A stretch of 64,000 bases of DNA, taken from a virus. Lineage: Duplodnaviria; Caudoviricetes. The translations under genes were made by a program, and so were the position numbers. This document shows, one piece after another, positions 32,429 through 49,529 of the stretch. The stretch is from the IMG/VR virus record IMGVR_UViG_3300028048_000039, positions 160,001 to 224,000 of that record. One strand, 5' to 3'. Every line of letters starts with the position of its first letter. Position 1 is the stretch's first letter. The notes under the pieces were generated by a model. That model saw only the letters and a list, made by a program, of their open reading frames with translations. It did not search any database and was not told where the DNA came from.

Positions 32429-32437
32429 ATGTATTTA

Positions 32438-33356: not shown

Positions 33357-33423
33357 CAAATTAACTATCTTCTTCACGAATCTCACTCCTCAAAACCTAT
33401 GTAAATAAACCTCTAGAACCTCA

Positions 33424-33777: not shown

Positions 33778-33871
33778 ATTGTACCTTCCCTTTTTAAGTT
33801 GTTAAACAATAACTGTGGACATTAATAGGTATAACAAATTCCGTGCCAAACTATCTATTTGATGATATTTT

Positions 33872-34066
33872 TTAGTTAGATAAAATACCATCTTTAATAT
33901 CAAGAAGAAGCGTAATAATTAAGCCAATAGGTGCAGTAAAGAAAAATCCCCACCAAAAAAACTTATGTTTTGTTTTCACTATTGTTTCAACAATGGAAAC
34001 AATAAAAATGTGTAGCACACCAAATAAGATAATCAGTTCAAATATACTCTGCTCCGTCATAGTCAT
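33872..34066 (-). CDS. small membrane protein
   Basis: hydrophobic; FFWWGFFFTAPIGLII. Confidence 0.65.
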   Translation of the reverse strand: MTMTEQSIFELIILFGVLHIFIVSIVETIVKTKHKFFWWGFFFTAPIGLIITLLLDIKDGILSN

Positions 34067-34072
34067 ATTTTT

Positions 34073-34927
34073 TTATTCATCCTCTTCACTCCACACTGCG
34101 GGTTGCTGCTCTGATTGAATCAGATATTTCTCTGCATACCGTATAATCTTTGCCCAATCATTTTCCTTGAAAGCCTTATCAATGTCTCCGCACTCTCCTT
34201 CAGATAAAGACATCTTTCCTTCTGGACGGTTTTCATCCAGATAGTTCATAAACCTGATTGCAAGGTCGTGCTTGGCGGCTTGATAGATTTTTTTACGAGG
34301 CTGTGGACGGAGTGATTTGAGGAAAGAATCAAGTTCTTCTTTTTCGTCAACACTTACTTCTCTTCCAGATGCAATATGTACTATTTCAAGAATGTGATTT
34401 AACTTATTTTTATCCTCTTCATTCCACTCATTCTTTGGCTGGGGTTTGAGGGATTTAAGCCAAGAAGATAATTTTTCTTTGTACTCATTTGACGGATGCA
34501 AATGGCCCGTACAACTTGGAATATCCATTGGAGGAAGTGTATCAGCGTATTTAATCATCTCAAGTATATCCATTAGTTTGTCTTCATCCTCTTCACTCCA
34601 CTCCGACTTCTGTTCTTTCTGCTTTTCAAGTTGCTCTTTGAGATAATAATTCTCTTCAATCAATTCACCAATTCTTGCATTAGATATTTGCAAGGCTTTC
34701 ATCAAATTACCTTGCTTTTCAAGCCAAACAAAAGCCTTATCCTTTTCTTCAGGTGACATATAACCACCAACCTGAATAATGCGAATAATTTTCTTTCTTA
34801 TCCTCTCATCCTCGCTTTCTTTAAGTTCTGGAATAAACAACTCACAAGCTTTCCGTAAGTCACTACCTGACGTACAATTTCTTTTAATGATTTCTATTGC
34901 CTCTTCTTTTGTCATAATTATTTCCAA
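34073..34927 (-). CDS. 'EWSEED' repeat protein, possibly C-terminally truncated
   Basis: paralog of 5544-7556; ends abruptly at WSEEDE. Confidence 0.75.
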   Translation of the reverse strand: MEIIMTKEEAIEIIKRNCTSGSDLRKACELFIPELKESEDERIRKKIIRIIQVGGYMSPEEKDKAFVWLEKQGNLMKALQISNARIGELIEENYYLKEQLEKQKEQKSEWSEEDEDKLMDILEMIKYADTLPPMDIPSCTGHLHPSNEYKEKLSSWLKSLKPQPKNEWNEEDKNKLNHILEIVHIASGREVSVDEKEELDSFLKSLRPQPRKKIYQAAKHDLAIRFMNYLDENRPEGKMSLSEGECGDIDKAFKENDWAKIIRYAEKYLIQSEQQPAVWSEEDE

Positions 34928-35099
34928 TTTATATTATTATCACTTTTCCTTGTAAAGTTTACAATGTCTTGCATTATTTCCTCTACTTTTTGCTTATCCC
35001 AGATGAAGACTGAGCCTATATAGTTATTAGGGTCTTCCATAATCTTATTCGTTTTTAGTTTAACAATACATTTTATCTATATACAAATATTGTGCAAAA

Positions 35100-35537
35100 C
35101 TATGCAAGTCCTGAAACAAATGTTGAAATTTCTTCAGCCTCATCCTCCGAGAATAACCTTTCAACCTTCTCACCATTCTTGGAGATTGCCTTCCAGACAG
35201 CGTTCACGTGGCGTTTTTCCTCATAGTAGTCATACCCGAACTCCTCAGCAAAGTCCTCAGCGGAGCTACAATTCTTCCAGTCGTAATATTCGCTGATGAT
35301 ACAATCCAACGCCCCGTTAATCATATCTTCAGTCTCGGTGATGCCTCTTTGATAGTTGTAGATGCTATCGTGGAATTTAAAGTCCTCAGCGACTTCTCCT
35401 CTCTTAATAGTTATTGTATAAGTGTAGTGAGTTGGGTCACCAGAATAACCCCTACCGAAAGCTCTCCTTTCCGTTCTCCTCTTATGTGCAGTTACCGAGA
35501 ACTCAATACCATTGTGCTTGTAATCAACTTTCATCAT
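35100..35537 (-). CDS. hypothetical protein (island gene)
   Basis: AGGAGGT SD; -24/-12 site at 35581. Confidence 0.85.
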   Translation of the reverse strand: MMKVDYKHNGIEFSVTAHKRRTERRAFGRGYSGDPTHYTYTITIKRGEVAEDFKFHDSIYNYQRGITETEDMINGALDCIISEYYDWKNCSSAEDFAEEFGYDYYEEKRHVNAVWKAISKNGEKVERLFSEDEAEEISTFVSGLA

Positions 35538-35608
35538 AATTGTACCTCCTTTCTTTAATTGGTTAAACTACTCTCTTGTATGCAAAAACCATTCCAGACT
35601 GATAAATC

Positions 35609-36133
35609 TTAGAGTTTATTTATCATCTTAAGCTGTAAATCCATACCTAACTCGGAGAAGTCAACGAACTTTTGTTCATTTCCAGAGTCATCGGTAATTA
35701 GGATGCTCATCTTCCTGCTCTTCTTATCAATGAAGACCCCTTCTACCTTAGTATAATTCCCGAAGATAATTTCATCTTCCAGACCCTTCACGAACCAGGC
35801 GTAAAAGTATTCATCGTGCTTTCCCTTCCTGATGACCAAGTCAATTATGTAATTAACAAGTGCATCATAACAATAAGTGAAAAGAAAGTCTTGCTCAGTC
35901 ATTACCTCAATATCTGGAAGGAGATGCCCATCGTCATCCAACCCACCATTCTCGCCAAGCTCATTAAGAACAGCCATTTCGTCACAAAAGATTACTGGCG
36001 ATTTATCGCCCCAGACCATTACTTGACCTTTATCAAATATGACATAGTTAAAATCCGCCTTATTGACATATTCCCCGAATGACATTCCCAAGTCAATGAG
36101 ATGTTTAATGAAATAATTCTTCTTAAAATTCAT
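35609..36133 (-). CDS. hypothetical protein
   Basis: ORF; GGGAGG in upstream gene end. Confidence 0.8.
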   Translation of the reverse strand: MNFKKNYFIKHLIDLGMSFGEYVNKADFNYVIFDKGQVMVWGDKSPVIFCDEMAVLNELGENGGLDDDGHLLPDIEVMTEQDFLFTYCYDALVNYIIDLVIRKGKHDEYFYAWFVKGLEDEIIFGNYTKVEGVFIDKKSRKMSILITDDSGNEQKFVDFSELGMDLQLKMINKL

Positions 36134-36136
36134 AGC

Positions 36137-36523
36137 CTATTCCTCCCAATTATAATAATTCAACCACGATATAATCTCGTCCATTACCTCTATGTCAAAT
36201 TTACTAACCCAAGTGGTCTCGTCAGATACATTAGTGAGTGAATGATGATACTCCTCATCAATCCAACATACATCATCATCAAAATCAACCTCAGCGACAT
36301 TGTACCCACAACAAGCATCAAAGTCCTGAAGAACCCAGTAGAGAACTCCGTCCTTGACATATATGCGTTTAATTCTCTCAGCGGTAAGTTCCTCATCATA
36401 GTACCTATAAACTATCTCGGTCTCTATGCTTCCACCATTTCTATTTACATACTCCTTGATGGTATCTACCATCTCCTTGTAGAGCTTCGTGTAAGCATTG
36501 TTAATCTTCGTCTCGTTAATCAT
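36137..36523 (-). CDS. acidic hypothetical protein
   Basis: strong SD. Confidence 0.85.
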   Translation of the reverse strand: MINETKINNAYTKLYKEMVDTIKEYVNRNGGSIETEIVYRYYDEELTAERIKRIYVKDGVLYWVLQDFDACCGYNVAEVDFDDDVCWIDEEYHHSLTNVSDETTWVSKFDIEVMDEIISWLNYYNWEE

Positions 36524-36631
36524 AATGTACCTCCTTTTTTCTTATTGTTAAACCTAAGAATACTGGGGGAGTGTCTTTTTCTCCCCCATATTCCGTTAAA
36601 CTAGTCCGCAACTGCGTACTACACCCCCATA

Positions 36632-37561
36632 TTAGACCATTAAAGTCTCTCTGTCAGCAACCTCGTCACCTACGAATGTGGAAACATAGACATTTCCCTT
36701 ATTGTCTTCCCATTCAATCCACTCCTTGTGGTCAGCGAGCTTATTAACCCTAATGCCAGTACCATACTTATTAGAGAGAGCTACAAGTCTCTTGAAAGTG
36801 ATGCACTCAGTCATTGTCATTGACTCATTATAATAATCTTTATTATAATAGGTCTCAGTAAGCTCGATGGTGAATTGATACTCTGGGTCAAGCATACCGA
36901 TAACATTACCATCATAGAACTGATAAGTCCTCGCCTCATTCAAGTCCATTGGGTAAGCACCATCGCAACACACCTGCCCCACGATGTTATCCTCATAGAC
37001 AACATACATAAAGACCTCGTCCATATCATCGGTCTCGTCATCGTACTTAATAACGCCTTGCCAGAGTGATACCTCTTTGCCGTTCACTACCACGCTATCA
37101 ACCTTCTCAAAGATGTCAAAGTCCACATTATCCCAACCACACACTTCGTTAAGGTCACGAACCATATCAAGCACCTTTTCCTTCTCATCCACGATTGGAA
37201 TAGGAGTAAAGTCATCGTCCATAATTCCCTCAGCAATGTTCTTAATCATCATCTCATAGATGTCATTGTGATAAGGACGAACCCAAGTACCATCTTCAGT
37301 ATAGACACCCTCGCCCGGAGCATAAGACAGCATCACCTCCAAGTGACCATCACGAACACGGAGAGCAAGAATGCGTCTCTCCTCATAGACTTCCTTCTCA
37401 CGAAGATAAACCACACTTGTAAATTCAGCGTACTCGCCATTTGGATTATCAACCCTGATAGCACCGCCCCACTCATTTACATAATTAACGATTGCATTAA
37501 CGAGATTGTCATAACCTCTTTCAACGATTGTCATTGCGTAATTGATAAGATTTTTTCCCAT
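36632..37561 (-). CDS. acidic hypothetical protein
   Basis: strong SD; -24/-12 site at 37613; N-terminus similar to 36137 and 42702 genes. Confidence 0.85.
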   Translation of the reverse strand: MGKNLINYAMTIVERGYDNLVNAIVNYVNEWGGAIRVDNPNGEYAEFTSVVYLREKEVYEERRILALRVRDGHLEVMLSYAPGEGVYTEDGTWVRPYHNDIYEMMIKNIAEGIMDDDFTPIPIVDEKEKVLDMVRDLNEVCGWDNVDFDIFEKVDSVVVNGKEVSLWQGVIKYDDETDDMDEVFMYVVYEDNIVGQVCCDGAYPMDLNEARTYQFYDGNVIGMLDPEYQFTIELTETYYNKDYYNESMTMTECITFKRLVALSNKYGTGIRVNKLADHKEWIEWEDNKGNVYVSTFVGDEVADRETLMV

Positions 37562-37635
37562 AATATACCTCCTTTTTTAAAATGTTAATAAATCAGTTTC
37601 CATAAATACTACTAACAAGTTCCGTGCCAAACTTC

Positions 37636-37812
37636 TTAGATTATGTAATTTTCTTCAAGTTTTTTGATAAATTCTCTTTCATCCATTTCATAGACCTCGT
37701 CTGCCGGAATGTCCAATGTTCCGATAACTCTTTCATTTTCAGCATCAATTACGATACTTCCACCATTTTCGTTACTTCTAAAGATGTAACCGCCTCTTTC
37801 AAATTCTTCCAT
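37636..37812 (-). CDS. small acidic protein (58 aa, not in ORF track)
   Basis: AGGAGGT SD then MEEFERGGYIF... Confidence 0.75.
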   Translation of the reverse strand: MEEFERGGYIFRSNENGGSIVIDAENERVIGTLDIPADEVYEMDEREFIKKLEENYII

Positions 37813-37871
37813 AATGTACCTCCTATTTTAAATTGTTCTCTATTATAATATACTCTCTTTTTCCGAAAATC

Positions 37872-38162
37872 TTACACTTCCAAGTCAAAAAGTTTATCTT
37901 TATCATCATATTGACGAATTAACTCTATGTCGTGAGTTTCTTCCATCCAGATTCTCCTCTTGTCATCAACATTGTCAAAAAGACCACAATCAGTACAAGC
38001 TTCTGCCAAGTTGTCAGTCGTTAATTTTCCATCACTTGAGAAGACCACGAAGGAATCTACTACTGGGTCTTCATCGGATTTAATCATCCCCAACCAAGTG
38101 TGAAAGGAGTTCTCATCCTTTCCTATGTAAATTATGTAAAAACGATTTTTCCAAATGCACAT
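37872..38162 (-). CDS. hypothetical protein
   Basis: SD; -24/-12 site at 38202. Confidence 0.8.
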   Translation of the reverse strand: MCIWKNRFYIIYIGKDENSFHTWLGMIKSDEDPVVDSFVVFSSDGKLTTDNLAEACTDCGLFDNVDDKRRIWMEETHDIELIRQYDDKDKLFDLEV

Positions 38163-38292
38163 ATCTCACCTCCTCTTTTAATTGTTCTACACTAATAGTC
38201 CTAACAAAGACCGTGCCAGAATTTAAAAAATAAGGGGGAAGAATGAAAAAAAATTCATCTTCCCCGCAAAAATCATAATTAGTCTTGGAGTA

Positions 38293-38463
38293 TTACTCGG
38301 CAACAGCGGTGGTATCAACGGCAACGCTATCAACAGCAACAGCGGTGGTGTCTTCAGCAACCTGCTCAAGACCCTGCTCCTCAACTACCTCTGCCTCATT
38401 GTTCTTGCAAGATACAAGTGCAAGGGCAAATACTACCAAGACTGCAAAAAGAATCTTCTTCAT
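38293..38463 (-). CDS. small surface lipoprotein (56 aa, not in ORF track)
   Basis: MKKILFAVLVVFALALVS-CKNNEAE...; lipobox; sigmaA-type promoter at ~38503; no SD. Confidence 0.8.
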   Translation of the reverse strand: MKKILFAVLVVFALALVSCKNNEAEVVEEQGLEQVAEDTTAVAVDSVAVDTTAVAE

Positions 38464-38668
38464 AGCAAACTTTATTTTTAATAGTTATTATTATTATTTC
38501 TGGCAAATATACAAAAATGTTTTCAAAAAAACAAATCTACCGGAAAAGTCTTACTCATCGTCCAGACTATTATTAAATAGTTCGTACAAGATATACAACA
38601 CAAAAAAAGTACATCCAACCGCACAAACTGATAACAATATCTTTAATAATAAGTAAAGCATCTTTCAT

Positions 38669-38974
38669 TTATTCTTTTATTATTTTTGGGTCATCATTAT
38701 AGTTCTCAAGCACCCACTCTAAAAGCAACTTTCTGTTTGTGGAATCAAGTTCACCATAAAACTTATTCATTCTCGCATATCCATTGTAATCGTATAGAAT
38801 ATAATTCCACTTCCCTATGATATGGTCAAGACTACAAGCCCACTTCACCTCCATAATAAAGGTTGGAAGATAGTCTTGCCTCTTCTCTCCATACATAGTC
38901 GTCCAGTCATAATAGTCGGACTTGTAATTCATACTGAAATAAAACCACTTGTTAATTGCGTTAATGTTGTTCAT
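38669..38974 (-). CDS. hypothetical protein
   Basis: SD; -24/-12 site at 39024. Confidence 0.8.
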   Translation of the reverse strand: MNNINAINKWFYFSMNYKSDYYDWTTMYGEKRQDYLPTFIMEVKWACSLDHIIGKWNYILYDYNGYARMNKFYGELDSTNRKLLLEWVLENYNDDPKIIKE

Positions 38975-39084
38975 AAATACCTCCTTCTTTAAAAAAGTAA
39001 AAATATGTTTTCTACCTTCTTACTATCAACTATCGTGCCAGAATGCTCCGGAATGCCGGTTTGGGTGAAAAAAGTTTTTCAATG

Positions 39085-39170
39085 CCTTTTTTTTTAAAAA
39101 AGGTGTGACGGAGACTATACTTTAGCTATTGATGTACTACTCTGACTCCGGTTTAACCCGAAACCAAACG
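39085..39170. repeat. GG(T/C)GTGACGGAGACTATA stem element
   Basis: copies at 27952, 39102, 42307; the 39.1 and 42.3 kb copies align over ~90 nt. Confidence 0.75.
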
Positions 39171-39300
39171 GCATCCATTTGTGCCGGTATTTCTACCTAT
39201 CTACTAACCCGGTGACCTTGCTCTCATTTCCATTGAGACCTCCTTCTTTAAAGTTAAACAATCAGTGAACACTAATAGTATATGCGAATATCGTGCCAGA

Positions 39301-39804
39301 CTACTCATTTCCGGAATCTTTTTTCCAAAATTTTTCCTCCTTGATGCCAACCCTATACCACCAAGACTCATCGTCAGCACCTATAACCCAATCAGTTTCC
39401 GGATTAACATCTGGAACATTCATCGTCTCTGCCATATCAGCAATAAGACTACAAGCACACTCAAAAGCTTCCTCTCCAGACTTGCAAGGATAAACCTCCG
39501 AGTAATAGTACCCATCAGTACCCATAGTTTCCGCAATTACGAAGGTAACCTTCTCATCAGTATCCTCATCCTCCTCTCTCTTGAGAACATTGAGAACATA
39601 ATCCCAAGCATCGTTGATTAAGTCCTCCAACTCATCTTCATAGTAATTCTCTGCATAAACTGCCAACGATACGCCATCTTTGCAGATTTCGCAAGTGTAA
39701 CTGCCATCGTGGCAGTAATCAGTAATCTTAATTTCCTTGCCTACTCTTTTAAGGTCTTTATTTGCTTCAGCAAGTGTATTCTCCCAATCGTTTCTTCTAT
39801 TCAT
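39301..39804 (-). CDS. acidic hypothetical protein
   Basis: start reset to ATG 39804, which follows an AGGAGGT SD. Confidence 0.85.
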   Translation of the reverse strand: MNRRNDWENTLAEANKDLKRVGKEIKITDYCHDGSYTCEICKDGVSLAVYAENYYEDELEDLINDAWDYVLNVLKREEDEDTDEKVTFVIAETMGTDGYYYSEVYPCKSGEEAFECACSLIADMAETMNVPDVNPETDWVIGADDESWWYRVGIKEEKFWKKDSGNE

Positions 39805-39820
39805 ATTATACCTCCTATTT

Positions 39821-40057
39821 TTAATCAAGATTAAAATTCTCCTTGCAAAACTCTTTGCCATCAAAGATTACTGAAAACATTTCGCTGGAATTTGCGAAAC
39901 AATAATAGTCCAAGTCCTCCAATGATAGACCATTTTCCTTTGCGATTTCCTCCAGACGCTTGTCAATGAAAGCGATTTGTTCCGGAGTATAATCGTCTTC
40001 AAAATCGTCAATAAGGCTTGCTCTAATGCTTTGGTAAGTAATTTTAGTATCTTCCAT
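39821..40057 (-). CDS. small acidic protein
   Basis: SD; -24/-12 site at 40111. Confidence 0.8.
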   Translation of the reverse strand: MEDTKITYQSIRASLIDDFEDDYTPEQIAFIDKRLEEIAKENGLSLEDLDYYCFANSSEMFSVIFDGKEFCKENFNLD

Positions 40058-40196
40058 ATTATACCTCCTTTTTTAAGTGTTAGACAATAAGTGTTTCCAT
40101 ATATACTAATAACAAGTTCCGTGCCAGACTTTCAAAAAATAAGGGGGAGAACAAAATTTTTTTCATCCTCCCCACAAACCAAAACACACAAACAAA

Positions 40197-40442
40197 CTAT
40201 GAAACCCTCTTCTTATAATATCTGTCAGCAGAATAAGTATCGCTTCCATCTTCCTCCGTAACCTCAGCATCCTCAAGGGCAAAACCCATCTCACTCATTA
40301 GGTAGTCACAATACAAGTGTTCGTGCTTCCAATCACCCCACTCAATCACAACAAGAACTCCGTCATCGCCATCTGGAACTACATCCTCAAAATAAAGGTC
40401 ACTCTTCCTTAACTTCTCCCTGACTTTATCAACATCTATCAT
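40197..40442 (-). CDS. small acidic protein
   Basis: SD; WGDWKHEH motif. Confidence 0.8.
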   Translation of the reverse strand: MIDVDKVREKLRKSDLYFEDVVPDGDDGVLVVIEWGDWKHEHLYCDYLMSEMGFALEDAEVTEEDGSDTYSADRYYKKRVS

Positions 40443-40528
40443 AGATACCTCCTTTTTTAATAGTTAATAATCTATGTCCGCAACTGCGTACTACACATCC
40501 CTTAATAAGCAACAATTGTTCCAGAATG

Positions 40529-40870
40529 TTAATCTTCGTCAGTTTCTACTCCAACTTCGTTGTAATCAAAGATGTCTTCCTTGTTTTCCTGCATCCATTC
40601 AGCGATGTCCACAAGTGCATCAGTGCCTATGTTAGCATTATCCCACCAATCGCTTCCATCACCACTACTGGCAAAGAAGATAAGTCTTCCATTCTTCTTT
40701 AGCTCAACACTATCAAGTGTGTATATGAAATAGTCATCTTCATTATCCCTAACGATTGGGCAATCATCCAAGTAGCTGACCTCAAGCGTGTCCTTACCGG
40801 ACTCCTTCATTATATTGGTGATTATCTCTATTGCTTCGTTCTCTATTTCTGCAAGTTTTTCTCTCATCAT
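40529..40870 (-). CDS. small acidic protein
   Basis: SD. Confidence 0.8.
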   Translation of the reverse strand: MMREKLAEIENEAIEIITNIMKESGKDTLEVSYLDDCPIVRDNEDDYFIYTLDSVELKKNGRLIFFASSGDGSDWWDNANIGTDALVDIAEWMQENKEDIFDYNEVGVETDED

Positions 40871-40950
40871 ATTGTACCTCCTTTTTTATAGTGTTAATAA
40901 AATCAGTTATCAGTTTCCGGAAGATGCCGGTGCTTATTCCGGCACTCTCG

Positions 40951-41214
40951 CTACATTTCCTCGTCCTCCGCAATCTCCTTCTCAATTCTCTTCAAGATGT
41001 TCATTGCTTCAGTCTTCGCCATTGCCCTGACCATTTGAGCAACATTTTTACCGAAAGCATCACTCCTGAACTCTTCTACCTCTTTGCTGTACTCTATTAT
41101 GAGCATCGCAAGTTTAAGGTCGTCAATGTTCTTGTTGCTGAACTCTGCAACCTTCTCATCTACTTTGTCCTTTATATCTGCCATAAGGACTCCGGCAACA
41201 TTTAATCCAATCAT
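40951..41214 (-). CDS. small helical protein
   Basis: SD; -24/-12 site at 41277. Confidence 0.8.
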   Translation of the reverse strand: MIGLNVAGVLMADIKDKVDEKVAEFSNKNIDDLKLAMLIIEYSKEVEEFRSDAFGKNVAQMVRAMAKTEAMNILKRIEKEIAEDEEM

Positions 41215-41316
41215 ATTGTACCTCCTTTTTTAAGTTGTTAGTAAAATCAGTTAATTCGTGTGGACATTAACATACTTGCGAATATCGTGCCAAACTCTTC
41301 ATTTCTGGAAAAAATT

Positions 41317-41577
41317 TTACATTTCTCTCTCAAAAATTTTGCAGATAGTGTGATTTTCACAATAATAGCCGTCCTGATAAATTTCAAAACCTCCGTTCTT
41401 GTACTCATCAATTTTGATTTCATCCGCATCAAAATTCTCTACATAAGTTGTTGTTTCATTTTCCAATGTGGAAGCAACTTCTGCAAGTGCTTCTTCCTTT
41501 GTCTTGAAGACATCAACCTTTAAATTTTCGTCAGTTATATCCCAGACCGATTGTGTTACTACTACAAATACTTTCAT
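41317..41577 (-). CDS. small acidic protein
   Basis: SD. Confidence 0.8.
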   Translation of the reverse strand: MKVFVVVTQSVWDITDENLKVDVFKTKEEALAEVASTLENETTTYVENFDADEIKIDEYKNGGFEIYQDGYYCENHTICKIFEREM

Positions 41578-41598
41578 ATTATACCTCCTTTTTAAGTG

Positions 41599-42120
41599 TT
41601 AATCTACTACTCCATTACCATAATAGAGATTGAAACTTCTTCCTTCTGAAATAAGACATCTCCAAAGATAATAATCTTCTTCCATTTGTTCATCCTGAAA
41701 TTTATGATAACTACCATTACAATAGCGTAACCTATTATTTTCCCTATACATTTTCTCGCACACCTCATCAAATGTACCTTCAAGTTCATAAGTCCTGATA
41801 GTATCCTCCTTATGCGGATAGACGTGATGCCTTACAACGCCATCTTTGTCGGCATATTCCCATACATCGTGTTCATAGTGGCTTTCACAGACTACTTTTA
41901 TTTTTTCGTTCCACTTCTTAACTATGCGAATAATGTTATCAATTTGCTTACAAGCAAGGTCAATAGCATAGTCATCGCTTCTTAAATAAGTCCAACGACT
42001 TTTTTCATACTTGAGTTCCTTTGTAACATAACCAACAAAGTCCTTTTCGTGATACAACGGCATTTTGTCAATGTGATAGAACGCCATCAAATACTTTAAT
42101 TCTTGTTTTGTGTAACTCAT
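41599..42120 (-). CDS. hypothetical protein
   Basis: SD; LRYCNG and YYGNGVVD motifs. Confidence 0.85.
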   Translation of the reverse strand: MSYTKQELKYLMAFYHIDKMPLYHEKDFVGYVTKELKYEKSRWTYLRSDDYAIDLACKQIDNIIRIVKKWNEKIKVVCESHYEHDVWEYADKDGVVRHHVYPHKEDTIRTYELEGTFDEVCEKMYRENNRLRYCNGSYHKFQDEQMEEDYYLWRCLISEGRSFNLYYGNGVVD

Positions 42121-42433
42121 AATGTACCTCCTTTTTTAGATGTTAGACAATCGTGTTCATTAAGATATACCTGAGAACTCCGGAAATCTTACAAGGGAAG
42201 GTTTTTTTCAACCCTCCACTCTTCTATATTCAAATTCTATGCCACACTTTCAAAATTCCGGCATTTCCGGCAAAAAAATTTATCAATCTCCTTTTTTTTA
42301 AAAAAAGGCGTGACGGAGACTATACTTCAGCGATTTACTTACTGCTTGGTCTCCGGTTTAACCCAGAAACAAAATCCGGCACACTAATACTATTGCAAAT
42401 AGTGTGCCAGACTACTCATTTCCGGAAATTTTT

Positions 42434-42700
42434 TTAATAACACTTCACAACTCTCTCCGGCATTACCTTCTTGGGAAGCTTCCCCTCCAGCGTTGCCCAC
42501 TTCACATCGTGGTCTTCAACATATTCCGGAATAACCCAATCAGTAAATATACCATCGCAGTTTGCTTTCTTCCCATACTTAATCTCGGCAATCTTCGCCT
42601 TGACTATCGGTTTCGTGTCAATCCTCATTGAAAGGGTAAAGCAAACATAATCGCCCTCTTTCAACTCAATACCAAACTTGTCACATACCTTCCTGTCCAT
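42434..42700 (-). CDS. hypothetical protein (KOW/SH3-like 'DKFGIELKEGDYV')
   Basis: ORF coupled to 42702 gene. Confidence 0.75.
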   Translation of the reverse strand: MDRKVCDKFGIELKEGDYVCFTLSMRIDTKPIVKAKIAEIKYGKKANCDGIFTDWVIPEYVEDHDVKWATLEGKLPKKVMPERVVKCY

Positions 42701-42701
42701 A

Positions 42702-43367
42702 TTATTTCTCCTCCAATGCTTTAAGAATACTCTTTAAGTCCTCAAGTGAAAAGTCAGCAAGTTCGTGCCAATTCTTCTCATTTGTCATAATGTCATCATC
42801 TCCGTAGATGTGGAAATAGATAATGCCTTCTCCCTCCATTTGAAACGCAAGGTCAACCTCCGGTAACTCAAGACTGCTCAAACCACAAGCACCCTCTTCG
42901 CCAATAACGGCAGAAAGTTTCATTGGATGCTCCTCGTCAGTATCCATCAGTATAGCAGAAATCTTTTTCCTGACATCCTCCCACTCTTCAAGGCCATCGT
43001 ACTCATCAATGCTATCAAGGATGGAGATGATAGTATCTGCCTTGTAAGTGAGACCATCGCTACCATCCAAGCAATACCAATTATCCTCGTCAGCAATCAT
43101 TTCCTTTTTCGTTGGGGTTTCAAGATAAGTCCTCATAATAGGAAGGAAATAGCAAAGTATGTCATTATCTACAATGCGAAGGGCATAGCAATAATACTCC
43201 TCCAATCTATCTTCCTCATTGATTGCATAACCATAGATTGTATCAAAGTTATGTTCAGGACTTGTATTCAGGAAACCTCCGTTCCTGATGACTACTTCCT
43301 TAATCGCAACGTAAGCATCGTTAAGGGATTTAAAAATTTCCTTTCTCGTCTTTTCAATTTTGTTCAT
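42702..43367 (-). CDS. acidic hypothetical protein
   Basis: SD; -24/-12 site at 43407. Confidence 0.85.
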   Translation of the reverse strand: MNKIEKTRKEIFKSLNDAYVAIKEVVIRNGGFLNTSPEHNFDTIYGYAINEEDRLEEYYCYALRIVDNDILCYFLPIMRTYLETPTKKEMIADEDNWYCLDGSDGLTYKADTIISILDSIDEYDGLEEWEDVRKKISAILMDTDEEHPMKLSAVIGEEGACGLSSLELPEVDLAFQMEGEGIIYFHIYGDDDIMTNEKNWHELADFSLEDLKSILKALEEK

Positions 43368-43508
43368 AATGTACCTCCTTTTTTAATGATTATCTACTCT
43401 ACTACTAACAAATATCGTTCCAAAAACAACAAAAAAGTGGGGAAGACCAAAAATTTTTTTAATCTCCCCACAATTCGTCTAACACTGGAAACCTCCGGAA
43501 ACCATTGA

Positions 43509-43862
43509 TTACTTGACTATCACTTCATAATTCCTTACCAAGTAGTCAGCAAACCTCTTCATTGTGTCAGTATCAAACTCGTCAATGTCAGTTTCAACCT
43601 CTTCCTCGTCGCCCAATGTGATATCTCCATCCTCATAATAGATGATGTCAAGTTTCCTCCTCTCATTGTACTCGTTCCCCTCGCAATCCTCAACTTCAAC
43701 ATCATACCGGAAACTACCACCCAAGTCAGTCGCATCAATGGTAAAGATACCTTCTGCATCTTCCTCAATGCCCAATGCACTACGGAGCAATTCAATCTCT
43801 CTCTTAATGAAGCCTTTAAGGTCTTCTCTCGCCTTTGTGATAATCGTGTCAGTGTAATTCAT
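43509..43862 (-). CDS. highly acidic small protein
   Basis: SD. Confidence 0.85.
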   Translation of the reverse strand: MNYTDTIITKAREDLKGFIKREIELLRSALGIEEDAEGIFTIDATDLGGSFRYDVEVEDCEGNEYNERRKLDIIYYEDGDITLGDEEEVETDIDEFDTDTMKRFADYLVRNYEVIVK

Positions 43863-43880
43863 AATGTACCTCCTTTCTCT

Positions 43881-44306
43881 TTAATCGTTAGTAATATCGT
43901 AGCAACCAATAATGCCATCCACATCCCCATAGAAGAAACGAACATAAAAAGTCCTCCCCTTGTAAGTGATGTCATAGCACATCTTCATAATGTACTCGTT
44001 AGTACCATCATCGCAACCATCGTCTATTCCGCAATCAACATACACACACTTGTCAATAGCATCCTTTGCCATAAGACTATCAATACAAGCGGAAATCCCT
44101 CTATCGTCATACACATAGTCATCAAGGATGTCCATCAACTCTCTCTTCACTTTCTCGCCATCATCCTCATCTTTCTCGCCATTGAGCAAGTCAAGACACT
44201 CGCCCAACTTCTCAAGGACATCTTCCTCTGCATCAGTAAGACCTTCCTTACTAATAAGGTCGTGATAGATACCGCTAATTCTTTTCAATAAGTCTTTTTT
44301 TATCAT
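43881..44306 (-). CDS. highly acidic small protein
   Basis: SD; -24/-12 site at 44358. Confidence 0.85.
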   Translation of the reverse strand: MIKKDLLKRISGIYHDLISKEGLTDAEEDVLEKLGECLDLLNGEKDEDDGEKVKRELMDILDDYVYDDRGISACIDSLMAKDAIDKCVYVDCGIDDGCDDGTNEYIMKMCYDITYKGRTFYVRFFYGDVDGIIGCYDITND

Positions 44307-44434
44307 AATGTACCTCCTTTTTTAGATGTTAGTAATCAAGTGAACTACTTTTTAGTATGCAAATACTTCGCCAAACTTGGTATTTCCGGAAACTTTTTTG
44401 CAAAATATACCGCAATTGCGTACTACTGAACTCG

Positions 44435-44716
44435 TTAGAAGAAATGTATCTCCGCAAAGTCGTTGTCCTTGTCCATCTCCTCCAAGATAGTCTTGCAGAC
44501 CTCCCCGAACTCTTCGTCCTCAAGATGACCTTCCAAGAACTCTCTTCCTAACTCCATATAACCTTCATCCTCCGAGAGCCAATAATCTCCGTTGCTGTCA
44601 TCTCCCACTTCTTTAACCCAAGAAACGAACTCGTCACAATCTCCGTAACTTGATACCGGAACTTTGTCGCTATACTCTACCTTGTAAGTCTTGCAGATGT
44701 GTAAACCATAACTCAT
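44435..44716 (-). CDS. highly acidic small protein
   Basis: SD. Confidence 0.8.
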   Translation of the reverse strand: MSYGLHICKTYKVEYSDKVPVSSYGDCDEFVSWVKEVGDDSNGDYWLSEDEGYMELGREFLEGHLEDEEFGEVCKTILEEMDKDNDFAEIHFF

Positions 44717-45013
44717 ATTATACCTCCTTTTTTAATAGTGTTGAACAATCAAGTGAACTCTCTCTCTTCATTTATACTCCGGAACTCCGGAAACCTTACA
44801 TCAACCTTTAAGTTTTTTCATCTTTGTTGTAACTCTTCTTCATATAGACCTCCTTCTTTAAAGTGTTAGACAAATAAGTGTGAACTATGCCGCAACTGCG
44901 TACTACTGATAACCTCTTAACAAATATCGTTCCGGAATTTAAAATCTCCCAAACTTTTTTTCGTTCCACCAATGATATATACTCATCCTCTCCGGAAATC
45001 TTGCATCATACCT

Positions 45014-45535
45014 TCAGGTTTCTTCATCTTTCTCATCATCATATGGAGTTTCCTCGTTGATGGAAACCTTCGCAGCTTCCTCTGCTTCCTCCTCATTATT
45101 ATAGATAAAGTCACTCTCATCGTACAAGCATCCATCCTCTCCATACACCTCATACCCATACTTCTTCTCATTGTTAGTGATAGTGATGCCGCACTCTTTG
45201 TACTCGGTGGTCTTTACCACGTTCTTGGAGTCATAGATAGTTTCATCATCTCCCTCATACGTAGTGTAAAGATATCCATACATCCCATCAATGTAGCTCT
45301 CAATGGTCACAAGCGTATCGCCTTTCTTCCATACCTGGAAGTTGATGTCATCGGTATCAATTGGGATGAAATGCTCCTTCTCAAAGTATTCCTTAATCTT
45401 CTCATAGCTTTCCAGTTCATAGTAAGCGTGAAGTGCCTCCTGGTTATAGCTGCATCTACTATCAAGACCACCACCTGCTGGTTCAGACTCTTCGGAAATA
45501 TAAGGTTTTCCATACCTATCAACAAATCTACTCAT
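45014..45535 (-). CDS. highly acidic hypothetical protein
   Basis: SD; consensus -24/-12 site at 45590. Confidence 0.85.
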   Translation of the reverse strand: MSRFVDRYGKPYISEESEPAGGGLDSRCSYNQEALHAYYELESYEKIKEYFEKEHFIPIDTDDINFQVWKKGDTLVTIESYIDGMYGYLYTTYEGDDETIYDSKNVVKTTEYKECGITITNNEKKYGYEVYGEDGCLYDESDFIYNNEEEAEEAAKVSINEETPYDDEKDEET

Positions 45536-45626
45536 ATGATACCTCCTTTTTTAATGGGTTAAACAATTAAGTGTGGACAATAATATACTTGCAAAATCCG
45601 TGCCAAACTGATAAAAAAAGGGAAGA

Positions 45627-46751
45627 TTAAGTTTTCATCTTCCCCCCTTTCTGCCCATTACACTTTCTACAAATCATCTGCAAATTCTCAAGAATTGTCT
45701 TTCCACCTCGCCACCAAGGAATTATGTGGTCTCCCTCCATCTCTTCAAAGGTATGATGCTCTCCGCATATTGGACAAACCCCCTCTTGTTTCTCATAAGC
45801 CGTTCTCTTGTCCACATTGCTAAATGTCCTCTTGGAAAGCTTCCTTGCAATGTCCTCGCTCTCATTGGAAAGCACGTACTCATAAATGCCCTTCTTGTCA
45901 GTAACTTCCTCGTTCTCCATCAATGAGTGAATTTTCTCCTCCAAGGTCTCGCAATCATACTCATTGCCCTTATAAGTGTCATAGAGCTTTCCCCAGTTTA
46001 AGCCGCACATCTCCTTTCTATAATACTTTCCGGTATTAAACGTCCCCTCAATCCAAGAAATCACATTGTTGAAGTAATCCCAAAGCTCACTGGCATCCTC
46101 ATCGTGCTGATGCTCTGCCATATAGTCAGCAATCTTTCCATCACTTATCCAGGAAAGCGCAGTCTCAAGGTACTCTTGCCTAATCGGACTTCCCTTTACA
46201 AACCTATTACCAATCTTATAGGCCACACAATTGGTCTTGCTGAACTTCTTCTTTGCATCGGTAAGCCACTTTCCGGTATAGTTGATATTAAGCAGCTCCT
46301 GGTCAGTAAGCTTTTCCCCGGCAATGTTAATCGTCCTAAACCAATCCAACCTCTCCTTGTCATTGCCATTGCAGACGTAGATATCCACTGGATAAGATAG
46401 AATTCTCTCCTGCTCAACGTCAGTCAAGTTATGGAAGTACATAGGAACACCCTCAACCTCAACCGAGAAGTCCCCGGAAACGTACTGGCAAAAGGAAATA
46501 GTCCTCTGCTGTCCATCAAGGACTTCATAAGTGCCATCCTCATTTTCCGCCCAGTACATAACGTTAAGCGGAAACCCCTTAAGGATAGTTTCAATCACTG
46601 CTGCCCTTTGCTTGTCCTTATAAACGAACTCCCTTTGATATGCCGGACGGATGTTAAGCTTTCCACTGAAGCCGGAAACTCCACCCTCGGCATTGTCAAC
46701 GTAGTCCTTGCTAATCTCCTTGATTGTGTAATTCTTGTGTTCTATTCTCAT
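45627..46751 (-). CDS. DUF262 + HNH endonuclease (GmrSD-like N-terminus)
   Basis: RPAYQREFVY, LDGQQR, F..IN..G..L; C-terminal CPIC..GDHIIPW..GG.T..NLQ..C..CN. Confidence 0.9.
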   Translation of the reverse strand: MRIEHKNYTIKEISKDYVDNAEGGVSGFSGKLNIRPAYQREFVYKDKQRAAVIETILKGFPLNVMYWAENEDGTYEVLDGQQRTISFCQYVSGDFSVEVEGVPMYFHNLTDVEQERILSYPVDIYVCNGNDKERLDWFRTINIAGEKLTDQELLNINYTGKWLTDAKKKFSKTNCVAYKIGNRFVKGSPIRQEYLETALSWISDGKIADYMAEHQHDEDASELWDYFNNVISWIEGTFNTGKYYRKEMCGLNWGKLYDTYKGNEYDCETLEEKIHSLMENEEVTDKKGIYEYVLSNESEDIARKLSKRTFSNVDKRTAYEKQEGVCPICGEHHTFEEMEGDHIIPWWRGGKTILENLQMICRKCNGQKGGKMKT

Positions 46752-46958
46752 AATGTACCTCCTACTCTTATTGGGTTAATACTTTATCGTCTATTGACGT
46801 GTATGCAAATTATGTGCCAAACTTTACTTTCTGCAGAAAATTTTAGTCTAATAGTACACAATTTGAAATAGTAGGGTTAGATAGGTATGTAGAAGATAAC
46901 CCTCATTATGGACATAGATTTACTATTAGCGGAAAAGAAACTTACGCAAGAATTTTAA

Positions 46959-47960
46959 TTAAGCGGAAAGTTTCTTAATAAGTATTCTTGCATAGACACC
47001 TTTATTATTTACATAGAACTTTACTCTGCCATCGTTTCCATTTATAAGTCCTTCTCCTCTCGCACCACTCATAATTCCCACTATTTCAAATTGTGTAGAA
47101 ATGCTGTTAATCTCTATATGAATAGTACCATCACTCCACAAATATTTCAACCCCGTAATCGGAATACCGATAACTCCGTTATAGTCCATAGGAAATTTCT
47201 CCATCCTACCACACTCAATAGCATCGTAATTATCGTACTTTGGAAAATCTTTCTCGTTGTACTTCTTGTAAGTGTCAAGTGTTTCTCTTTTATTATCATT
47301 TGAAACATTTGTGTACCAACAAATAGAATTTACTTGCTTGTATATTCCATCTGCCTTTGTAATATACCTCTCATTTTCAATAGGATAATTTGCGGGCATT
47401 TTGAAGTATGGCATTTTGCCTGTGAATAAAGTTCTGCCAAGCCAAAGTTGTCCGTTCTTTATAAGTGGAAATATCTCTTTGTAGGTAATTGCGTTGTTAT
47501 TCCCCAAGATAATAAATTTCTTGTTGTACTTCATAAGTTGAGCAACATACTCCCTGAACAAGCTAAATGGTGGGTTGGTAACTACCACGTCAGCTTCCTT
47601 AAGATAAGCAATGCACTCCTCACTCCTGAAGTCCCCATTACCATTAAGATAGGTAACCTTTACCTCTTCATCATCCACTCTCCTATTGCCGTTCTTGTCC
47701 CCCTCATATACCAATACCACACCACGTCCATCTGCCTTATATCCAGTGCTGATGAGCTTCTTCAACCCAAGGTGCTCAAAGTTAAGGGAGAAGTATTTAA
47801 AGAAGTTAGACTCCCTGGCATCATCACAATTACAATAAACCACCTTCCCCCTGAAGAAGTCCTTGTAATGCACCATCTCTTTCTCAATATCTGACAATTG
47901 AGTGTAGAATTCGTCTTGCTTTGCTGTCTTTGCCTTGTGTAAATTAGAGTTCTTTGCCAT
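46959..47960 (-). CDS. EcoRI-family adenine-specific DNA methyltransferase
   Basis: DEFYT..DIE.E, VYCNCDD, GDFRS.EC, VVTNPPFSLFREY, YARILI. Confidence 0.9.
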   Translation of the reverse strand: MAKNSNLHKAKTAKQDEFYTQLSDIEKEMVHYKDFFRGKVVYCNCDDARESNFFKYFSLNFEHLGLKKLISTGYKADGRGVVLVYEGDKNGNRRVDDEEVKVTYLNGNGDFRSEECIAYLKEADVVVTNPPFSLFREYVAQLMKYNKKFIILGNNNAITYKEIFPLIKNGQLWLGRTLFTGKMPYFKMPANYPIENERYITKADGIYKQVNSICWYTNVSNDNKRETLDTYKKYNEKDFPKYDNYDAIECGRMEKFPMDYNGVIGIPITGLKYLWSDGTIHIEINSISTQFEIVGIMSGARGEGLINGNDGRVKFYVNNKGVYARILIKKLSA

Positions 47961-48208
47961 AATGTACCTCCTTTTTTAAAGTGTTAAACATAATGATACC
48001 TCACAAAAACCATACCGCACTCATCAAATATATAGAAAAAAATTGAAAAAAGCAAAAAAATCAACCCCTCAATCCCACCAGGAAACCGGAAACCCGGTTA
48101 ATAATAGCCGCATTTGCGTACTACACCAGGTTTCGGAAAGCGGCAGTCCCAACTGACAAATTGTCCACTCTTTCAGCCAGGAACCGCCGGAAACCTGGAT
48201 GCTACTCG

Positions 48209-48586
48209 TTACTTGATGGCGGCAATTGCCTTATAAACCTCTTCCACCGCCTTGTTGACCTGCTCAATTGTCTCATAGACCTTCGCAATGACCTCGTCAG
48301 CTACCTCGTCCCTCTCGTCTTCCTCCTCTTCCTCGTCATCATAGCCAACCTCATAGTCATACCAGTCCACGTAGCCAAGCCACTTCGCAATCTCGTCCTT
48401 TTCGTACCACAAGATGTCGTTCACTTCCTCTTCAGTGAGCGCTTCTACGCCCTCTCTATCCTCGATGTACTCCTCCACCTCATCGCAGTCGCCCTTTTCC
48501 TTGAGGACTTCAAGTGTGTCAAGTCCGCCACCCCAAGCCGGGAATTCATTGAGGGACACTTCCTCATACTTCTTAATTTCTACCAT
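48209..48586 (-). CDS. very acidic hypothetical protein (first gene of the island)
   Basis: SD; FPAWGGG..VNDILW; DDEEEEEDE. Confidence 0.85.
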   Translation of the reverse strand: MVEIKKYEEVSLNEFPAWGGGLDTLEVLKEKGDCDEVEEYIEDREGVEALTEEEVNDILWYEKDEIAKWLGYVDWYDYEVGYDDEEEEEDERDEVADEVIAKVYETIEQVNKAVEEVYKAIAAIK

Positions 48587-49529
48587 AATTACCTCCTTCT
48601 TTAAAATTAGACAATCTAGTTAACTATGTACACTTGCATGCATGCATAAGTACTTTCAAAAATAAGGGGATGAACCATGGACTGCTAACTACCAAACCCC
48701 ACAATTCATCCCCACACACTTACATGGTAACAAAAACCATGCCAAACACTAAAAAAGGATATATAAACCTCAAAAAAAAAATAATGCATGTTCATGAAGC
48801 TATTTCCTGGACTACCATGGGAGCTAGTTACTCTCTCACTTCATCTACTTCGCAAGCCAACATTGGCCCCTAGCTCCCGGTGTCACTCCCCTCTCGCTTT
48901 CTCCTCCTTTAACACTAAAAATGGAAAATACATGAACACACTAATACTCTTGCAAAGACCATGCCAAACTTTACGGAAAACCCATGATAGATAAAAAATA
49001 TTTACAATTGGGGAGCTATACCTATATTATATATAGAGAGGGAAGCTCATGTACATGCATGATAGGCCTAGAAACCATGGGAGCTTCCGGGTATAGACCC
49101 AGGGATAGCCGGGGTACCCGGTGGTGTAGTCCCCCTCCCATAGTCCCCCTGGCACTTTTGAAGGAATATGGGGGCACAGTTGCTTCCGACAAATCTCCCT
49201 ATTTTTTTCGTCATTTTCCATTAGGGGGGTACCCTTTCCCATCAAAAGGTACTACTTTTCCAAAAATTTTTCCACCTAAAATTTCCATCATTTCCCAAAC
49301 CTCACTTTCCTCTCAAAAACCATCGTCACCCAAATTTCATCTTTCCGAGAAAAAAAAAATCCCTAATGGATTACACTTCAAAAGCCATTTTCCATTAGGG
49401 GGGGGGGTCTAAAAATTGAGTAGGTACTACTTTCGGAATAAATTTTTCCCAGAATTTTTTTCATCTTTTCCAACAAAATATATCTTGACTTTCACCCACA
49501 AAATATGTAAATTATTAGAAAAAGACAAT

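Follow-up and report, generated by a model that had tools for sequence, protein, structure and literature searches.

An island of strong Shine-Dalgarno sequences behind sigma-54-type promoters in a T4-related jumbo phage

We analysed a stretch of 64,000 nucleotides (here called the window, bases 160,001-224,000) of the viral record IMGVR_UViG_3300028048_000039, which is 344,580 bp long, has 37% GC and a CheckV completeness of 93%. An earlier reading of the window (the sequence-only reading) had described extreme use of Shine-Dalgarno (SD) sequences within one island of a Bacteroidota-type phage. We observed that this array is real. In a single block, 23 gene starts on the minus strand carry AGGAGGT and most of them are preceded by a sigma-54-type promoter, while related phages have the same promoters without the SD. 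These descriptive findings are solid. The mechanism which we propose, namely that the early mRNAs would be addressed to ribosomes lacking protein bS21, has in our opinion roughly even odds.

Shine-Dalgarno sequences and promoters of the island

There were 27 copies of AGGAGGT in the window, compared with 6.3 expected, and 23 of them were located on the minus strand between 35,544 and 48,597 (window coordinates are used unless the genome or a contig is named). Across the whole genome of 344,580 bp, minus-strand copies were present only in the 190-210 kb bins. At 23/23 sites an ATG follows after 4-6 nt (4 nt at 5 sites, 5 nt at 17 and 6 nt at 1), and opens either an open reading frame (ORF) of 58-374 aa (21 cases) or a mini-ORF of 9 or 11 aa (2 cases). 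The leaders end in AAAAAGGAGGUA, 4-6 nt ahead of the AUG, with the general form ..TTAAAAAAGGAGGTACATT-ATG, and they are weakly structured (mean minimum free energy of -4.9 kcal/mol across 75 nt). The full consensus AGGAGGTAYAWTATG has 15 matches genome-wide, 15/15 of them inside the island. The sequence-only reading had assigned one shared consensus to about 24 starts; we found AGGAGGT at 23 starts and the full consensus at 15. The cassette at its left edge (33,848-33,777) is also present, with an SD degenerated to GGGAAGG.

We calculated predicted pairing to the 16S rRNA tail for 402 roughly called genes, a check which the sequence-only reading had proposed, and the island stood out. The median was -10.9 kcal/mol for island genes and -1.05 kcal/mol for the other 374 genes, while random positions gave a mean of -1.9 kcal/mol. 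The AGGAGGT cassettes form nine contiguous pairs with ACCUCCUUU of the tail, with a median energy of -13.1 kcal/mol for a 9-nt tail and -13.6 kcal/mol for a 16-nt tail of the Bacteroidia type. Judged by complementarity to the 16S tail and by the fixed short spacing to the start codon, these elements are predicted SD sequences.

No comparable array was found elsewhere in the genome. However, the SD is not strictly confined to the island, as had been claimed, since a second and much weaker cluster lies at genome 140-170 kb, window 1-10 kb included, with 13/62 genes at -8 kcal/mol or lower. Its sites are mostly AAGGAGGAATAA or AAGGAGG(A/T), built from the final codons and the stop of the preceding small gene, and suggest translational coupling within a paralogous family. 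Outside the island and this cluster, a strong SD was detected on 6 of approximately 260 genes, and on the capsid gene there is no SD. In agreement with the earlier description, genes outside the island have A/T-rich leaders without SD.

The repeated expression cassette was likewise correctly recognised, but its promoter was not. Between the genes of the block there is a repeated YTGGCACG-N4-TTG(C/T), and both its geometry and its sequence are those of a sigma-54 (-24/-12) promoter. We counted 14 exact copies of TGGCAYN5TTG in the window (0.93 expected), each of them on the minus strand and within 28,188-48,966. With one-mismatch variants included there were approximately 20 promoter copies (28,186-48,966, minus strand). 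Information content peaks at AGTYTGGCACGG and TTTG. The -24 GG and the -13 G never vary, the -12 C is weakly conserved, and the consensus AGTYTGGCACGG..TTTG(C/T) corresponds to that of sigma-54 promoters, YTGGCACG-N4-TTGCW. Such a promoter is located 43-124 nt upstream of 14 or 15 of the 23 SD sites. This element, overlooked before, is the main repeated upstream element, whereas TTGTYTAAC, said to be frequent upstream, occurs at 5/23 sites and GTYCAC near the predicted +1 at 6/23.

We found no sigma-54 encoded in the phage; rpoN is present in the Bacteroidales metagenome-assembled genome (MAG) G001 and in the Bacteroides thetaiotaomicron control. We also considered the motif as a promoter of the sigma-70 family or of the extracytoplasmic function (ECF) type, served by either of the phage's own sigma factors. 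Two observations led us to reject this: a spacing of only 4 nt separates the conserved blocks, and the motif is also present at groES promoters of the host.

The SD itself appears to be under selection. When the 23 leaders were anchored on the motif, positions more than approximately 8 nt upstream were near-random (<0.5 bit per position), while tttAAAaA-AGGAGGT-A and the spacing of 4-6 nt were preserved. Three operon-internal genes (gaps of 16-21 nt; starts at 43,862, 41,577 and 39,804) have a full SD and no promoter, and two translationally coupled genes retain GGAGG. As an internal control, the only island gene driven by a sigma-A-type promoter, which encodes a 56-aa lipoprotein (38,293-38,463), has no SD. 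Since the upstream leader diverged while AGGAGGT and its spacing were kept, also in promoterless genes, sequence comparison indicates that the SD is maintained gene by gene through selection.

The same observations bear on the idea that the SDs are neutral passengers, in which a founder cassette with a chance AGGAGGT was spread by recombination, as for the PeSL cassettes of T4-like phages, and SD-blind ribosomes were indifferent to it. Cassettes are known to have spread in this way in T4-like phages (PMC2839356, PMC4122927), the island itself has composite hairpin-promoter junctions, and AGGAGGU only mildly alters reporter output in wild type Flavobacterium johnsoniae. Against this, AGGAGGT and its spacing are intact at 23 places in leaders which are otherwise almost wholly diverged, the promoterless and coupled genes kept their SDs, and a matching anti-SD RNA is encoded next door. 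We consider neutral spread very unlikely.

Several other repeats were observed close to the promoters. A 16-bp near-palindrome, GTAGTACGCAnnTGCGGAC, has seven copies, only in this block, often just past a gene end or beside a promoter. Similar GTACGCAnnTGCGTAC sites stand beside promoters of related phages (L065 start, L073:4090, L074:9900), and GTAGTACGCAnnTGCGGAC is probably an operator for a dimeric regulator. TTTCCGGA palindromes are located near some promoters. An element AGATTTCCGGAG-N8-GTATAWA was found at 44,998, 44,793, 42,186 and approximately 37,871 (minus strand), upstream of SD genes without a -24/-12 motif, and TTTCCGGAAAT palindromes lie approximately 15 nt upstream of three -24 elements; these two may be promoters of a further class, or sites for an activator. 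Repeated palindromes with the pattern CTACGCAA-N5-6-TTGCGTAG occur at 27,700-27,960 and 30,715-30,740 (minus strand), at the downstream end of the block and ahead of the sigma-gene promoters.

Gene content, relatives and origin of the island

This T4-related jumbo phage has genes for a major capsid protein of the T4 type (Gp23 family, E 2.6e-63), for 18 tRNAs and for two factors of the sigma-70 family. We searched 20 island proteins against Pfam and PHROGs. Two have a Pfam family, namely the EcoRI-family methyltransferase (PF13651, E 3.8e-111) and the GmrSD_N/HNH nuclease. Two belong to PHROGs families without assigned function (phrog_5149 and phrog_4273), and the remainder are ORFans. An Atlas look-up of the 309-aa protein yielded nothing usable. 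Most island proteins are very acidic (pI 4.1-4.5), and no paralogy was found among them. That the genes are small and have promoters of their own, that a methylase is among them and that they lie upstream of the phage sigma factor all suggest a block of early, accessory or anti-defence genes.

A single protein as query, either the sigma factor or a flanking 647-aa protein, led to no related locus, and relatives were identified once the phage sigma factor had been aligned with its few homologs. We obtained four related viral records, G018 (361 kb) and the fragments G019, G020 and G021, as well as short sister contigs (L065-L067 and L125, each ≤10 kb). G018-G021 contain 10-26 copies of TGGCAYN5TTG on one strand, compared with 0-4 in the reversed-pattern control, and in G018 and G019 the promoter array is located directly upstream of the orthologous sigma gene. 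The SD is another matter. This phage has 24 copies of AAGGAGGT versus 6 in the control, whereas the sequence was not in excess in any of G018-G021 (4 + 4 in G018, versus 13 + 11 in the control). Strong SDs were detected in 11/14 promoter-downstream leaders of this phage, 0/21 in G018 and 0/26 in G019. The relatives have their own conserved leader after the promoter, ACAATTAAAATTTAGAATT-ATG. The same promoter array with an SD-less leader in relatives points to the SD as a lineage-specific replacement of the translation signal.

Individual genes agree with this. The 81-aa gene at 40,197-40,442 is 58% identical to L065:66-305, which has a sigma-54-type promoter and no SD. Copies of the methylase (62% identity) and of the nuclease (69%) are present on a related phage contig (G001:C165), where they stand behind a sigma-54-type promoter and a ACAATTAAAAT leader. 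By alignment, these three orthologs confirm the leader swap. In the sister lineage, a weaker GGAG-type SD is present at approximately 5/13 early genes.

Could the island have been acquired recently from a phage of an SD-using host, for example one of Bacillota? Its GC content at third codon positions (GC3) is 0.458, compared with 0.337 in the rest of the genome, which is beyond the range of 500 contiguous control blocks, and codon usage differs. However, the SD-less early block of G018 is shifted in the same manner (0.39 versus 0.23-0.27), therefore the shift belongs to this class of genes and does not indicate import. The sigma-54-type promoters, the position, the near-palindromic operator-like sites and the orthologs are common to the SD-less relatives. 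Further, megablast of the island against GenBank phages gave no match, and scans of IMG/VR (2.9 million viral contigs) with cassette patterns gave 0, 5 single and 38 single matches, with no second array. Acquisition is already contradicted by these results and is scarcely tenable. Since relatives share the promoter array, position, orthologs and codon shift without the SD, comparison of the genomes indicates that the island is native and not imported. The GC3 shift plausibly reflects translation before the A/T-reading tRNAs of the phage accumulate.

The contrast in GC3 extends over the whole early block (28,600-48,600, minus strand), with 0.44-0.46 compared with 0.34 elsewhere, and G018 shows the same contrast. 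Of the 18 phage tRNAs, 17 are located at genome 80.5-85.1 kb, and they mostly read A/U-ending codons. These observations suggest an adaptation of early genes to the tRNAs of the host and of late genes to those of the phage.

Host ribosomes and the neighbouring anti-SD RNA

The host is likely a member of Bacteroidales, judging from genome comparisons. The motif TTTG-N17-21-TAnnTTTG (usually TATATTTG) was found ≤100 nt upstream of 21 phage genes, compared with 1 in the coding control; TTTG..TAnnTTTG is the Bacteroidota sigma-A consensus (PMC9723704). E. coli-type sigma-70 promoters are essentially absent upstream of phage genes. Upstream regions of groES in 10/14 sampled Bacteroidales genomes carry TTGGCAY-N5-nTG with the same weak -12 C, and these loci have SD-less leaders and TGTCA/TGACA repeats further upstream. 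Mapped sigma-54 promoters of Flavobacterium psychrophilum drive groES, dnaK, clpB, htpG and lon (PMC9723704). Homologs of the methylase-nuclease pair (45-56% amino-acid identity) are present on large chromosomal contigs of many Bacteroidales. The assignment to a Bacteroidota-type phage is thus in agreement with the sigma-A-type promoters, the SD-less bulk leaders and the groES-like promoters. CRISPR matches, which had been suggested for confirming the host, did not help, as among 401 Bacteroidales genomes the CRISPR-like short matches were gene homologs and short matches of low identity, with no convincing spacer.

One contig, G001:C165, was tried as host chromosome, as it carried rpsU with a strong SD, and was dropped when it proved to be a fragment of a related phage. 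It is possibly chimeric at its GC-rich end. This 45-kb contig, binned with a Bacteroidales MAG, has 19 sigma-54-type promoters and many homologs of this phage (L122/L123, G001:C165:1-40,000). Its extreme end carries a gene for bS21, rich in GC and preceded by a sigma-A-type promoter and an extended SD, AAAAGGAGGTG (-16 kcal/mol); this gene could be phage-borne or result from chimeric assembly.

Ribosomes of such a host would normally ignore SDs. Bacteroidia ribosomes sequester the anti-SD under bS21, bS18 and bS6, and SDs are unread (PMC7797042). The exception is rpsU, the extended SD of which (< -13 kcal/mol) is read by subunits without bS21. Leaders with AGGAGGU and rpsU leaders are translated 2-4 fold better without bS21, and in normal cells >10% of ribosomes appear to lack this protein (PMC9976891, PMC13000453, PMC13000457). 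Ribosomes of F. johnsoniae deficient in bS21 favour AGGAGGU reporters and rpsU (PMC9976891, PMC13000457), and a tuf reporter given AGGAGGU rose >2-fold in the bS21 deltaC strain.

If the host instead read SDs, being either a Bacteroidota with exposed anti-SD or not a Bacteroidota, these elements would simply be strong ribosome-binding sites. Their textbook sequence and spacing would suit this, and host identity is drawn from the signals described above. However, approximately 94% of the other phage genes, including that of the capsid, have no SD (background level), the promoters are of the Bacteroidota type (21 versus 1) and not of the E. coli type, relatives with the same promoters have no SD, and occlusion of the anti-SD is reported to be conserved across Bacteroidia (PMC7797042, PMC9976891). 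We regard an SD-reading host as quite unlikely. The sequence-only reading had named two circumstances which would speak against it, an SD-using host and a recent import. Neither holds: the signals of the host do not fit an SD-using taxon, and the block occurs without SD in relatives.

A second element for the mechanism is a candidate non-coding RNA encoded at 30,755-31,058 (minus strand). It displays ACCUCCUUUUU, which is complementary to AAAAAGGAGGU of the cassettes. The 11-nt complement is perfect, and pairing with the leaders is predicted at -15.8 kcal/mol. The homologous, collinear RNA of the sister phage shows only CUCCUUUUU, and short blastn detected no homologous RNA upstream of the sigma gene in the SD-less relatives. 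These comparisons, covering two lineages and a short blastn search, fit a joint origin of the SD and the anti-SD RNA.

We propose that the early mRNAs may be addressed to the bS21-free ribosome pool, with the neighbouring anti-SD RNA as a modulator. Genes or short operons would be transcribed from a sigma-54-type promoter of the groES kind, followed by a short, weakly structured leader with an SD. An SD of rpsU strength (approximately -13 kcal/mol) would make the early mRNAs clients of the minority of 30S subunits without bS21, because other ribosomes hide the anti-SD. This pool would be used inefficiently by SD-less host mRNAs, leaving little competition for phage early mRNAs. The phage mRNAs would also compete with host rpsU mRNA for the pool and so slow bS21 replenishment, and the phage RNA, by pairing with these leaders, may modulate or stop translation from them. 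Published work is in line with the idea of such a pool, and we see the case for this reading as evenly balanced. A fuller scenario is tentative, and we would sooner expect some part of it to fail. In it, approximately 25 early mRNAs with rpsU-grade SDs would capture the pool, out-compete rpsU to hold that state, and be titrated at the end of the early phase by the RNA mimicking the 16S tail.

The RNA can also be understood differently. The SD may mainly be an address label for it, with initiation through the A-rich leader as in other Bacteroidia mRNAs; AAAAAGGAGGU would then let one small RNA shut off or destabilise all early mRNAs. This explanation overlaps with the proposed use of bS21-free ribosomes. 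Predicted pairing of the RNA with the cassette is stronger than that of the 16S tail (-15.8 versus -13.6 kcal/mol), the RNA has its own sigma-A-type promoter and terminator beside the block, its motif and the SDs are both shorter in the sister phage, and the blastn result in SD-less relatives points the same way. On the other hand, the motif is a canonical SD at the canonical spacing of 4-6 nt, and it covers the part of the 16S tail which is paired in rpsU initiation, whereas a mere tag would be free in sequence and position. The covariation comes from two lineages only, and the absence of the RNA in relatives from short blastn only. We consider a role mainly as an address label unlikely, but a serious candidate.

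A number of observations weigh against translation by the bS21-free pool. The SD helix with the 16S tail has 9 contiguous bp (10 with a mismatch), compared with 13 bp in F. johnsoniae rpsU. In wild type F. johnsoniae, the tuf reporter with AGGAGGU made somewhat less protein, thus the phage SD could lower and not raise early expression. A phage gene for bS21 or for ribosome modification, which the sequence-only reading had suggested looking for, was not recognised in the phage, nor was one for bS21 removal. On the side of transcription, we found no enhancer-binding protein; PF00158 matched only a ClpB-like double-AAA+ protein without GAFTGA. The host-type TGTCA/TGACA repeats are absent at the phage promoters, so neither an activator nor enhancer sites for sigma-54 were identified. 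The early timing is deduced from gene content and position, and the Bacteroidales host from promoter types, SD-less leaders and homologs. The only close genomic match of the ClpB-like protein was on a contig binned with a Bacteroidales MAG, and this link to the host is weak because the contig is a fragment of a related phage. Among rpsU loci from 16 of 17 sampled Bacteroidales genomes, 3-6/16 carry a strong or moderate SD, therefore competition with rpsU would work in only some hosts, and one of the strong-SD loci is on a phage-like contig. RegA (PF01818) was not found in the phage, in a search which had no positive control anywhere.

We also observed two paralogous short RNAs (42,290-42,409 and 39,100-39,298, minus strand) downstream of sigma-54-type promoters. 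Both contain GGGTTAAACCGGAG, and at the 3' end they have TATAGTCTCCGTCAC followed by a T-run. The 3' motif recurs at 27,955-27,969 (minus strand), and neither RNA has an Rfam match.

Feature map of the block and comparison with known systems

Features of the SD-rich island and the sigma-54-type promoter block in window coordinates. All are on the minus strand, except one copy of the near-palindrome.
Feature	Coordinates	Remarks
SD-rich putative early-gene island, whole	33054..48966	~27 minus-strand starts, 23 with exact AGGAGGT
Sigma-54-type promoter block, full extent	28186..48966	~20 YTGGCAYG-N4-TTG, all minus strand
Promoter-like site 48966, then AAAGGAGGAG at 48908	48890..48966	without clear ORF
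Promoter-like site 48744, SD 48591-48597, 125-aa acidic protein 48586-48209	48209..48744	phrog_5149
EcoRI-family adenine methyltransferase, 333 aa, 47960-46959; SD 47966-47972	46959..48056	PF13651
Methyltransferase promoter, Bacteroidota sigma-A-type	~48,025-48,056	with degenerate -24/-12 motif
Promoter 46819, SD 46757-46763, GmrSD_N + HNH nuclease 46751-45627, 374 aa	45627..46819	
Best-matching promoter TGGCACGGATTTTGCA at 45605, SD 45541-45547, 173-aa acidic ORFan	45014..45605	
Degenerate promoter 44934, near-palindrome 44903, SD 44848-44854, 11-aa mini-ORF 44843-44808	44808..44934	
TTTCCGGAG..GTATAAA element, SD 44722-44728, 93-aa acidic ORFan	44435..44793	
Promoter 44373, SD 44312-44318, 141-aa acidic ORFan	43881..44373	
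Operon-internal 117-aa gene, full SD 43868-43874, start 43,862	43509..43874	18-nt gap
Terminator-like hairpin 43469-43440, promoter 43422, SD 43373-43379, 221-aa acidic ORFan	42702..43469	
Translationally coupled 88-aa gene	42434..42716	weaker SD GGAGGAG
Promoter 42409 and short structured RNA ending UAUAGUCUCCGUCAC + T-run	42290..42409	no SD, no ORF
Promoter-like site 42244, TTTCCGGAG element 42186, SD 42126-42132, 173-aa ORFan	41599..42244	
Operon-internal 86-aa gene, full SD 41583-41589, start 41,577	41317..41589	21-nt gap
Promoter 41292, SD 41220-41226, 87-aa protein	40951..41292	-12 region TTCGCA
SD 40876-40882, 113-aa acidic ORFan	40529..40882	80-nt gap without recognisable promoter
Promoter-like site 40523, near-palindrome 40491, SD 40447-40453, 81-aa protein	40197..40523	
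Terminator-like hairpin 40173-40144, promoter 40126, SD 40063-40069, 78-aa acidic ORFan	39821..40173	
Operon-internal 167-aa gene, full SD 39810-39816, start 39,804	39301..39816	16-nt gap
Promoter 39298, SD 39238-39244, 9-aa mini-ORF and structured RNA	39100..39298	paralog of 42,290-42,409 RNA
Promoter 39040, SD 38979-38985, 101-aa protein	38669..39040	
56-aa lipoprotein gene (38,293-38,463), sigma-A-type promoter TTTG..TATATTTG	38293..38570	A-rich leader, no SD
Promoter 38218, SD 38168-38174, 96-aa protein	37872..38218	
TTTCGGAAAAAGAGAGTATATTA element, SD 37818-37824, 58-aa acidic protein	37636..37871	
Promoter 37629, SD 37567-37573, 309-aa acidic ORFan	36632..37629	
Near-palindrome 36619, hairpin, SD 36529-36535, 128-aa acidic protein	36137..36619	
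Coupled 174-aa gene	35609..36150	weaker SD GGGAGG
Promoter-like site 35596, SD 35544-35550, 145-aa protein	35100..35596	phrog_4273
Promoter 33848, full leader, 117-aa acidic protein	33424..33848	degenerate SD GGGAAGG
78-aa membrane protein	33054..33313	AGGAGG 11 nt upstream of ATG
Candidate non-coding RNA	30755..31058	sigma-A-type promoter, intrinsic terminator, displays ACCUCCUUUUU
Two sigma-54-type promoters upstream of phage sigma-factor gene	30601..30685	
Phage sigma-70-family factor, 283 aa	29619..30470	downstream end of block, no strong SD
Last sigma-54-type promoter of block	28186..28201	
Near-palindrome GTAGTACGCAnnTGCGGAC	48,121; 44,903; 44,423; 40,491; 36,619; 28,515 (-); 32,575 (+)	

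The minus-strand block also contains a lone tRNA-Leu(UAA) (32,342-32,428, minus strand), apart from the main tRNA cluster; a tRNA-Leu was the only Rfam match in the window. In the main cluster, ARAGORN identified a tRNA with a UCA anticodon, labelled SeC, at L010:16,565-16,714 (genome 80,565-80,714), next to a tRNA with an odd anticodon loop; the UCA tRNA may be opal-suppressor-like. Genome-wide, a T4-late-like motif, TATAAATA, was found ≤100 nt upstream of 15 genes, compared with 2 in coding controls, which hints at a T4-style late promoter class beside the sigma-54-type and sigma-A-type classes.

In a literature search of incomplete coverage, neither SD islands of Bacteroidota phages nor early programmes of phages relying on sigma-54 turned up. 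So far, bS21-free ribosomes of Bacteroidia are known to serve one gene, rpsU. With approximately 25 phage genes carrying a signal of the same kind, and SD-less relatives as built-in controls, the physiological reach of this pool would become directly testable with existing strains and assays. If the fuller scenario is true, no earlier natural example would be known of a virus making use of compositional ribosome heterogeneity in bacteria, here on top of an early programme run by host sigma-54. The proposed mechanism would also be a novel way for a phage to take over its host, altering the signal on the mRNA and not the ribosome. For the neighbouring anti-SD RNA, the island supplies a concrete set of targets. 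Such islands would mislead gene callers and host predictors based on SD frequency. Further, the pair of leaders with and without SD could serve as an orthogonal expression switch in Bacteroidota.

Four known systems can be compared with the island. The PeSL cassettes of T4-like phages (PMC2839356, PMC4122927) also belong to T4-related phages, in which ORFan early genes are flanked by units of a terminator hairpin and an early promoter, and orthologs stand behind different cassettes in relatives. In the island, we observed such hairpin-plus-promoter junctions at 43,469/43,422 and 40,173/40,126, with similar ones at approximately 38,250 and 36,580; terminator-like sites overall are not enriched (13 versus 10.4 expected). 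The differences are that the promoter here is of the sigma-54 and not the sigma-70 type, and that the cassette extends into a conserved translation signal.

The promoters resemble those of the sigma-54 regulon for chaperones and protein quality control in Bacteroidota (motif SM4 of F. psychrophilum, PMC9723704), which likewise have YTGGCAY-N5-TTG with a weak -12 C. However, the host promoters come with TGTCA/TGACA repeats and SD-less leaders, whereas the phage copies lack the repeats and the phage lacks a gene for an enhancer-binding protein.

The closest parallel for the leaders is rpsU of Bacteroidia (Jha 2021, PMC7797042; McNutt 2023, PMC9976891; Naeem 2026, PMC13000453; Arpin 2026, PMC13000457), which also has a strong SD in an SD-less setting. 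The core AAAGGAGGU, predicted pairing of approximately -13 kcal/mol or stronger and a short leader are shared. There it concerns one host gene with a helix of 13 bp, and here approximately 25 phage genes with a predicted helix of 9-10 bp. The phage cassettes also lack the autoregulatory logic of rpsU, because their products are not ribosomal proteins.

A similar strategy, acting on bS21 and the anti-SD in favour of phage mRNAs, was proposed for Bacteroidota phages which encode their own bS21 (Mizuno 2019, as cited in PMC9976891; Chen 2022, PMC9723584). Those phages add a protein, as proposed late in infection, whereas this phage has no bS21 and would instead change the signal in its early-gene mRNAs.

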